Shown here: piece by piece, positions 17,763-18,962 of the stretch | Layout: every line of letters begins with the position of its first letter | Position numbering within the stretch: position 1 is the first letter of the stretch | DNA from: Terriglobia bacterium | Lineage (GTDB): Bacteria; Acidobacteriota; Terriglobia; UBA7540 | Length of the DNA: 64,000 nucleotides | Direction: 5' to 3' | Assembly (NCBI GenBank): GCA_041481635.1 | Contig: JBGPCF010000001.1 | Span: 18,044 to 82,043 of the forward strand | Position numbers and translations under genes: made by a program | Notes under the pieces: model-generated | Database searches by the model: none | What the model was told of the DNA's origin: nothing | What the model saw: the letters and a program-made list of their open reading frames with translations, nothing else

Positions 17763-18305
17763 CTACTTGGTGCCGCTCTTCTTGTGCTCCATCACATCGC
17801 AAGCCGCCCCGGCGCCGCTGGGGTCAATGGCTTCCTTGTCGACGTCGATGTGCTGGATGATTCCCTGCTTGTCGATCACAAAAGTGGTGCGATTGGCAAA
17901 ACCGTGTTCCTCGTTGTAAATCCCGTAATCCTTGGAAACGGTTCGCATGAAGTCGCTCAAAAGCGGAAACTTCACTCCAATTTGCTCGGCGAATGCTTTG
18001 TTGGCCGCCGGACTGTCTACGCTCACTCCCAGGACTTGCGTGCCGTTCGCTTCAAATTTGGCGATATCAGCCTGATACGCCTTGAGCTCTTTCGTTCAAC
18101 CCCCGGTGAAAGCGAGCACGTAAAAAGCCAGCACCAGATTCTTCTTACCCAGGAAATCGCTCAGCTTCACCGGCTTCCAGTCGGTGCCAAGCAGAGTGAA
18201 GTCCGGAGCCTTGTCCCCCACTTTGAGTGTTGCCGCTTGAGCCGCCAATGGACTGGCAAGGGCCAAAACCACTAGGACGGCAGCGGCGCGCAGTTTGTGC
18301 TTCAC
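17763..18305 (-). CDS. exported BCP/PrxQ-like peroxiredoxin with in-frame TGA (18096-18098) at the peroxidatic position; candidate selenoprotein
   Basis: Track fragments 18096..18365 and 17763..18026 share a frame and are joined by one TGA. Read-through gives ...[14 protein letters not shown]...RTTFVID.... GTG start at 18303-18305 lies 7 nt after AGGAGG. Signal peptide [24 protein letters not shown]. Confidence 0.75.
18060..18081 (-). promoter_or_regulatory. candidate bacterial SECIS hairpin of peroxiredoxin A
   Basis: mRNA 5'-GGCGUAUCAGGCUGAUAUCGCC-3' begins 14 nt after the UGA. It forms 4+4 bp with one bulged U and an AGGCU loop. The sequence is identical to the element in the paralog. Confidence 0.55.
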
Positions 18306-18383
18306 AGAATAGCCTCCTCTTAGAACATGCTTCATTGCGTTATAGCAGGCCGGATTATATCCCAAAAAACGGGAGACAGAGAG

Positions 18384-18399
18384 TTTTACAAGTGTAAAA
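18384..18399. promoter_or_regulatory. 16-bp palindrome in the peroxiredoxin A upstream region (candidate operator)
   Basis: TTTTACA-AG-TGTAAAA is a perfect 7-bp inverted repeat. On the minus strand it lies between a TTGACA (18404-18409) and a perfect TATAAT (18354-18359). Confidence 0.3.
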
Positions 18400-18428
18400 G
18401 TTTTGTCAATTTGGAGAGCCCCACAAAC

Positions 18429-18962
18429 CTACTTTTTCCGGTGCTCCAGCGCGCTGCAAACTTGCTGCGCATTGTCCGGGTCCATGGCTTCTCCGCCCTT
18501 CTGAATACTTTGGATGATGCCTTCTTTGTCGATTACAAAGGTTGAGCGGCTGGCGAGGCGGACGAGGGGAATCAACACGCCGTATTCTCGCGACACACTC
18601 TTGGTTTCGTCGCTCAGGATGGGAAACTTCACTCCAAGGTCGTTTGCAAAAGATTTGTTCTTGGCCTGGGTGTCTACACTGATGCCGATCACCTGTGTGC
18701 CCGCCTTTTCGAATTTGGCGATATCAGCCTGATACGCCTTCAACTCCTTCGTTCAGCCGGGTGTGAATGCCTTGATGTAGAAAGCGAGCACAACGTTTTT
18801 CTTGCCGCGAAATTCGCTCAGTTTCACCGACAAGCCATTCTGATCCGTCAGCTCAAAATCGGGAGCTCGATCGCCTACTTTCCTTGTTTCATTCCGCGCG
18901 AAGAAAAACATGCCCCCTCCCAATAACAAAGTCGCTCCAACGAGTATAAAGACCTTTCGCAT
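18429..18962 (-). CDS. membrane-anchored/exported BCP/PrxQ-like peroxiredoxin with in-frame TGA (18753-18755) at the peroxidatic position; candidate selenoprotein
   Basis: Track fragments 18753..18962 and 18429..18743 share a frame and are joined by one TGA. Read-through gives ...[15 protein letters not shown]...RSTFVID.... N-terminal hydrophobic anchor [21 protein letters not shown]. Confidence 0.75.
18717..18738 (-). promoter_or_regulatory. candidate bacterial SECIS hairpin of peroxiredoxin B
   Basis: The same 22-nt sequence as 18060-18081, again starting 14 nt 3' of the UGA. Confidence 0.55.

Follow-up and report, generated by a model that had tools for sequence, protein, structure and literature searches.

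We analyzed a 64,000-nucleotide (nt) stretch of the genome of a Terriglobia bacterium (GenBank assembly GCA_041481635.1, contig JBGPCF010000001.1, positions 18,044 to 82,043 of the forward strand; the whole stretch is referred to here as the window), in which two tandem genes, prxA and prxB, are each interrupted by a single TGA and are predicted to encode selenocysteine (Sec) peroxiredoxins. On the minus strand of window positions 17763-18962, the open reading frame (ORF) list contains four fragments that fall into two pairs, 18753..18962 with 18429..18743 and 18096..18365 with 17763..18026. The members of each pair share a frame and are parted by one TGA, located at 18755..18753 in prxA and at 18098..18096 in prxB, and our coordinates confirm the arrangement described in the original prediction, which had been made from the DNA letters and an ORF list. 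When the TGA is read through, prxA (18429..18962, minus strand) extends from an ATG at 18962 and encodes a product of 177 amino acids; prxB (17763..18305, minus strand) extends from a GTG at 18305, with AGGAGG 8 nt upstream, and encodes a product of 180 amino acids.

Both read-through products are AhpC/TSA peroxiredoxins. With a Cys substituted at the TGA codon, each of them matches the Pfam profile PF00578 (AhpC-TSA) across the UGA, with E-values of 4e-41 for prxA (residues 29-152) and 5.5e-41 for prxB, and the two matches cover positions 1-123 and 1-124 of a profile 124 positions long. In both genes the UGA is codon 70, within the motifs AFTPG-U-TKE (prxA) and AFTGG-U-TKE (prxB), and in an alignment with Cys-form homologs, which carry the string A-F-T-x-G-C-T-x-E, it falls on the peroxidatic Cys, where Sec is the predicted residue. 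The active-site Thr and Arg, whose conservation had been noted at the outset, are invariant in the homolog alignments, as is a C-terminal Cys. Thr and Sec lie on the upstream side of the UGA and Arg on the downstream side, and neither half alone amounts to a complete thioredoxin fold or active site.

To read the codon in this column directly from DNA, we scanned one genome per GTDB species and retained the best 80 related loci, designated here by the letter L and a number. Among 75 distinct genes at these loci, the peroxidatic codon is TGA in 69 and TGC in six, so the column holds either TGA or Cys, as the original prediction had anticipated, and its argument that a TGA shared by both paralogs is not a chance event now extends to homologous genes of other species. 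Most of the related loci come from metagenome-assembled genomes (MAGs) of Acidobacteriota (Terriglobia, Blastocatellia, Bryobacterales, Acidiferrales, Pyrinomonadaceae, and Vicinamibacterales), with a few from Anaeromyxobacter, Dormibacterota, Chloroflexota, and Bacillota. The peroxiredoxin of the closest GTDB relative is 76% identical, and tandem TGA pairs also occur at six of the loci (L001, L002, L003, L007, L009, and L010). Protein databases present the column differently. The 120 closest proteins in a collection of 5.8 billion sequences include 60 with Cys and 40 with Trp at the TGA column, none with U, and 12 C-terminal fragments of 100-109 residues that start directly past it. We interpret the Trp entries as a gene-caller artefact, in which TGA would have been translated under genetic code 4 on short contigs. 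The fragments and the presumed mistranslations bear out the expectation that gene callers would break up such genes.

Selection acts on both sides of the TGA. In comparisons with orthologs at L001, L002, L003, L006, and L007, the proportion of nonsynonymous differences (pN) is 0.04-0.21 and that of synonymous differences (pS) 0.50-0.81 both upstream and downstream, and the ratio of nonsynonymous to synonymous divergence (dN/dS) is about 0.05-0.10 on either side, a mark of strong purifying selection. For prxA, dN/dS downstream of the TGA is 0.06-0.10 against the L001, L002, and L003 orthologs; for prxB, it is about 0.05 both upstream and downstream against L002. Because both halves are constrained and neither holds a complete fold or active site, the selection pattern argues for a single read-through protein.

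A conserved hairpin downstream of the UGA

The 29 nt that follow the TGA are identical between prxA and prxB, two paralogs that differ at many sites elsewhere. Within this segment lies a hairpin, GGCG-UAUCA-GGC-UGAUA-U-CGCC, at 18717..18738 in prxA and 18060..18081 in prxB (both minus strand). Its stem starts 14 nt past the UGA and encloses a 3-nt, G-containing loop, with a bulged U on the 3′ side; in prxA it is found in both the minimum free energy (MFE) and the centroid folds. The UGA-to-loop distance in prxA and prxB is 23 nt, within the usual range of 16-37 nt. The bacterial Sec insertion sequence (SECIS) has been described as a stem-loop that lies shortly downstream of the UGA and whose small apical loop contains G (PMC1088965), and the prxA/prxB hairpin agrees with that description in its position past the UGA and in its G(G/U)C apical loop. 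A SECIS element was what the original prediction had asked for downstream of each TGA, and the hairpin found there is both conserved and covarying.

Covariation was assessed on 68 distinct sequences of the TGA form, in which the nine hairpin pairs are formed in 80.7% of alignment cells, compared with 71.3% in column shuffles, and cells in which both sides have changed number 52 against 18 expected; none of 500 shuffles reaches either value. Compensatory changes are seen in six of the nine pairs, for example at columns 21/36, where G-C becomes C-G, A-U, or U-A, and at columns 24/32, where U-A becomes C-G. Sliding the 3′ partner by 1-3 columns reduces pairing to 20-53%. When synonymous codons were resampled with the protein held fixed, 65 distinct TGA-form stretches gave a mean z of -1.75, with 45% at p<=0.05, compared with a mean z of -0.39 and 0/6 at p<=0.05 for six Cys forms, which have no hairpin at that position. 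The prxA hairpin itself scores z = -2.80 (p = 0.003) in this test. One of the few loci from outside Acidobacteriota, that of Anaeromyxobacter (L065), combines TGA with a perfect copy of the hairpin.

The hairpin is not uniform across the family. Some subgroups are without the bulge, which shifts the register of the stem. A minority of TGA-form loci, mostly from Acidobacteriaceae (L037, L039, L050, L054, L071, L074, and L078), are without the common hairpin and show another stem instead, e.g., CUUUCCAGC...GCUGGAAG, with a larger loop of 11-13 nt (codon +1 to +54 past the TGA). This minority suggests a second SECIS geometry within one protein family.

Decoding of the UGA

On this evidence we predict that prxA and prxB are genuine Sec peroxiredoxin genes, and we put the probability of this reading at roughly 0.87. 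In the mechanism that we propose, the hairpin would recruit the complex of SelB, GTP, and Sec-tRNASec, and the UGA at codon 70 would then be decoded as Sec rather than as a stop. The full-length proteins would be exported through their N-terminal signals and would act outside the cytoplasm, where Sec70, set in a P-x-x-x-T-x-x-U site with the conserved Arg, would reduce peroxide and be converted to a selenenic acid. The C-terminal Cys169 would resolve the selenenic acid into a selenenylsulfide, and some thiol-disulfide oxidoreductase would in turn reduce the latter.

Several results weigh against Sec insertion at these codons. Neither the 64-kb window nor the sequence flanking the 80 related loci yielded a tRNA-Sec, selA, selB, or selD; the search covered the window with ARAGORN and Rfam, its long ORFs with Pfam, 60 loci with ARAGORN, and all loci with regular expressions for SelA, SelD, and SelB motifs. 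The prxB hairpin is borderline in the synonymous resampling (z = -1.72, p = 0.067) and, taken alone, does not reach significance when compared with dinucleotide shuffles (z = 0.04 for 69 nt). RNAalifold gave no consensus fold for the 68-sequence alignment, likely because subgroups differ in stem register and bulge and a few Acidobacteriaceae genes carry the other hairpin. Finally, the contrast with Cys forms in the hairpin analysis comprises six DNA sequences only.

The Sec trait is documented in Acidobacteria, where Solibacter usitatus has SelA, SelB, and a Sec-containing FdhA (PMC1794560). With Solibacter SelA as the reference, we found close relatives by the thousand, among them sequences whose names point to Acidobacteriia and Bryobacteraceae MAGs, and none of these SelA sequences was tied to a contig that also bears a Sec peroxiredoxin gene. 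In the course of the tRNA search, ARAGORN reported an 83-nt "tRNA-Gly(ccc)" with its anticodon at position 38 at window positions 14552-14634 (minus strand), inside the β-propeller part of a kinase ORF (12253-14958). The Rfam scan at gathering thresholds found no tRNA anywhere in the window, and the ARAGORN call is probably a false positive, even though Acidobacteria are known to have irregular allo-tRNAs (PMC5389517).

Insertion of a standard amino acid at the UGA is the alternative that survives best, and we consider it improbable. The residue could be Cys, delivered either by a tRNASec-like tRNACys of the selC* type or by an acidobacterial allo-tRNA acting as an opal suppressor, or it could be Trp or Gly under a reassigned code. 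Such decoding has precedents: tRNASec-like tRNACys opal suppressors are on record, as are allo-tRNAs from Acidobacteria (PMC5389517), and both the Trp found in 40 of the best 120 database proteins and the lack of visible Sec machinery genes in the window would fit it. The reported hosts of selC* tRNAs, however, are Firmicutes, Thermodesulfobacteria, Nitrospirae, and Proteobacteria, not Acidobacteria (PMC5389517). A global reassignment of TGA is ruled out, since TGA serves as the ordinary stop codon of 10 of the 26 Pfam-supported genes in the window. Trp, moreover, could not act as a peroxidatic residue, and the database entries that carry it are, on our interpretation, gene-caller output. A covarying hairpin at a fixed position is needed for SelB-dependent decoding and not for a general suppressor, which again favors Sec.

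Sec insertion in bacteria competes with release factor 2 (RF2), and some truncated product is to be expected. It is nevertheless very improbable that termination at the UGA predominates, with read-through minor or selenium-dependent, so that the main products are a short exported N-terminal peptide or C-terminal pieces started at internal TTG or GTG codons. Internal start codons for such pieces do appear in the ORF lists. Each half by itself, however, would be without a complete thioredoxin fold and active site, both halves are under equal constraint, and C-terminal pieces would have no export signal.

That the genes are pseudogenes, or their TGAs sequencing or assembly errors, with truncated products or none, deserves hardly any credence: a lone in-frame stop is formally the signature of a nonsense mutation, and the window holds a genuine case in a DrsE_2 gene, but here the TGA occupies the same codon in the two paralogs and in 69 genes from other species, coincides with the catalytic residue rather than a variable site, is followed by a maintained frame under the constraint reported above, and, unlike that in DrsE_2, precedes a conserved hairpin.

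The DrsE_2 gene (PF13686; 56250-56855, plus strand), which adjoins a rhodanese/metallo-β-lactamase gene, contains the third in-frame TGA of the window (56532-56534) and serves as an internal control. We considered this TGA as a possible DsrE-like selenoprotein codon in a U-x-x-C motif, which would have given separate evidence that Sec is decoded, and rejected it, as the column is occupied by R, K, T, or S in homologs. At this codon AGA (Arg) stands in two metagenome contigs, which match the window at 99.6% and 99.95% identity, and no hairpin was found downstream of it. The DrsE_2 TGA does not encode selenocysteine; it is an ordinary nonsense single-nucleotide polymorphism or an error in the sequence, and on none of these points do the prx TGAs resemble it. 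In the same region, a JGI contig (3300052991, L081, noted here for its positions 3315-4406) is 99.64% identical to window 53649-58054. Roughly half of its 16 substitutions are G-to-A, and two of these create stops that split the rhodanese/metallo-β-lactamase gene into three called pieces. The window copy has no such interruption, and the contig resembles a poorer assembly from the same population.

Predicted export, the C-terminal cysteine, and gene neighborhood

A correction that we add to the original prediction is that both proteins appear to be exported. The N-terminus of prxB is a classical predicted Sec-type signal peptide (18234..18305, minus strand), with a positive N-region, a hydrophobic core, and an A-x-A site; it ends in A-Q-A and is followed by ATLKV. 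The hydrophobic segment at the N-terminus of prxA (18891..18962, minus strand) probably serves as a signal anchor or a signal peptide. By a heuristic rather than a dedicated predictor, 62 of the 69 Sec-form homologs have a hydrophobic segment past the start codon. From these sequence features, prxA and prxB are probably exported and act outside the cytoplasm.

Cys169 is the only Cys in each of the two proteins (codons at 18456..18458 in prxA and 17799..17801 in prxB, minus strand) and sits in a C-terminal extension. About 99 residues past the Sec position, 68 of 69 Sec forms and every one of the six Cys forms carry a Cys, which in most cases is the sole one downstream of Sec. The earlier suggestion that one C-terminal Cys per protein could act as the resolving residue gains from this conservation, and we predict that Cys169 likely has that role.

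The prx pair is divergent to a heat-shock cluster of Hsp20, ClpB, and HtpX genes (window 18963-23486), and a sigma-70-like promoter, TTGACA-17-TATCAT, lies upstream of hsp20 at 19220-19248. In the nearest genome, the Terriglobia MAG DATGFN01 (L001), ClpB is 91% identical and the arrangement matches that of the window, with HtpX-ClpB-Hsp20, a divergent prxA-prxB pair, and a Ser/Thr kinase; L003 is similar. The corresponding segments are 5475-11500 in L001 and 5809-12142 in L003. That the genes stand beside Hsp20-ClpB-HtpX in two other genomes as well suggests a stress-response context, as an association only. On the other side of the pair, three successive large genes on the plus strand (9713-17674) encode Ser/Thr kinases fused to TPR/TolB-N or PD40 β-propeller domains, a kinase-fusion array typical of Acidobacteriota, and the last of them converges on prxB. 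An inverted repeat with 16-nt arms that are 88% complementary (17691..17746, minus strand) starts 17 nt past the prxB stop codon. It may form a hairpin at the transcript end, though it has no T-run, and a terminator scan made no call there.

Comparison with known peroxiredoxins

The original prediction had described the active-site motif as that of BCP/PrxQ. The string is present, but the proteins do not fit canonical BCP/PrxQ: the closest characterized relative appears to be AhpE, with archaeal Bcp close behind, and the BCP/PrxQ equivalog model NF006960 scores the two proteins at 86.6 and 80.2 bits, below its cutoff of 140 bits. The PrxU equivalog model NF040737 also stays below its cutoff of 270 bits (68.6 bits for prxA and 83.2 bits for prxB). 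The top sequence match in the Protein Data Bank (PDB) is Mycobacterium tuberculosis AhpE (E = 1.5e-28 with prxB as the query). For structural comparison we modeled a Cys homolog, P0057, in place of the window proteins (pLDDT, the predicted local distance difference test score, 89.2). Its superposition on AhpE, Sulfolobus Bcp1, and Sulfolobus Bcp4 gives template modeling (TM) scores of 0.84-0.91; Bcp4 is the top Foldseek match, and AhpE is among the best structural matches, level with the archaeal Bcp proteins. The clade appears AhpE-like and is common in Acidobacteriota.

The likeness to AhpE (Rv2238c; PDB 1xvw, 1xxu, and 4x1u) extends to TM scores of 0.87-0.90 and 39-41% identity for the P0057 model and to the motifs LAFTG-x-C/U, FPLLSDF, and GxANRxTFV, which AhpE and the window proteins have in common. 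AhpE, however, is a cytoplasmic 1-Cys enzyme that uses Cys and is reduced via mycoredoxin/mycothiol. In the window proteins UGA replaces the Cys codon, the N-terminus bears hydrophobic signals, and the C-terminus is extended by about 25 residues that include an invariant Cys. With BCP/PrxQ proteins, including Sulfolobus Bcp1 and Bcp4, they share comparable size and fold and the F-T-x-G-C-T-x-E string, but they have no Cys at +5 of the peroxidatic position, and their second Cys is in the C-terminal tail.

Selenium-dependent peroxiredoxins are themselves well established. A 2026 review (PMC13188914) includes the family under the entry "Peroxiredoxin (Prx), PF00578, TxxU", and a 2016 survey counted 91 Sec-peroxiredoxin selenoproteins in 78 organisms (PMC5029168). 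The conceptual advance made here is correspondingly modest, as both Sec peroxiredoxins and the UGA/SECIS mechanism were already known. For annotation, prxA and prxB should be called as intact selenoproteins, not as four fragments or pseudogenes.

We also put forward, tentatively and at a little under even odds, that these genes belong to a distinct clade spanning Terriglobia, Blastocatellia, Bryobacterales, Acidiferrales, and Pyrinomonadaceae: exported, AhpE-like peroxiredoxins with a 2-Cys-type Sec/Cys pair, in which Sec predominates (about 92% of species-level representatives), which are often encoded in tandem beside heat-shock genes, and which public sequence sets mis-annotate almost throughout, as fragments or with Trp. 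If so, peroxide defense outside the cytoplasm would rely on selenium in a phylum that ranks among the most abundant in soil. The data suggest that many soil Acidobacteriota place selenium in an exported peroxiredoxin, so that in this dominant soil phylum tolerance of oxidative stress would be tied to the supply of selenium.

Two Sec-containing systems provide the nearest precedents. PrxU of Eubacterium acidaminophilum, a Sec peroxiredoxin demonstrated experimentally according to the citation of Sohling et al. 2001 in PMC13188914, has a UGA-decoded Sec at the peroxidatic site, as predicted for prxA and prxB, but belongs to a subfamily other than theirs. A closer counterpart, from the same clade as prxA and prxB, is the protein listed as "Anaeromyxobacter_dehalogenans_2" in the supplement of Zhang et al. 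2006 (PMC1794560), which has the AhpC/TSA fold, the motif A-F-T-P-G-U-T-R-E-L, and a C-terminal A-I-D-P...C tail. It aligns without gaps over 147 residues, with 44% identity to prxA and 46% to prxB, and places its U on the TGA and its Cys on Cys169. Since this relative is already published, prxA and prxB are additional members of an established Sec-peroxiredoxin family. They differ from it as tandem, diverged paralogs beside Hsp20-ClpB-HtpX in an uncultured relative from Terriglobia, and the published Anaeromyxobacter sequence is truncated at its N-terminus, with no export signal described.

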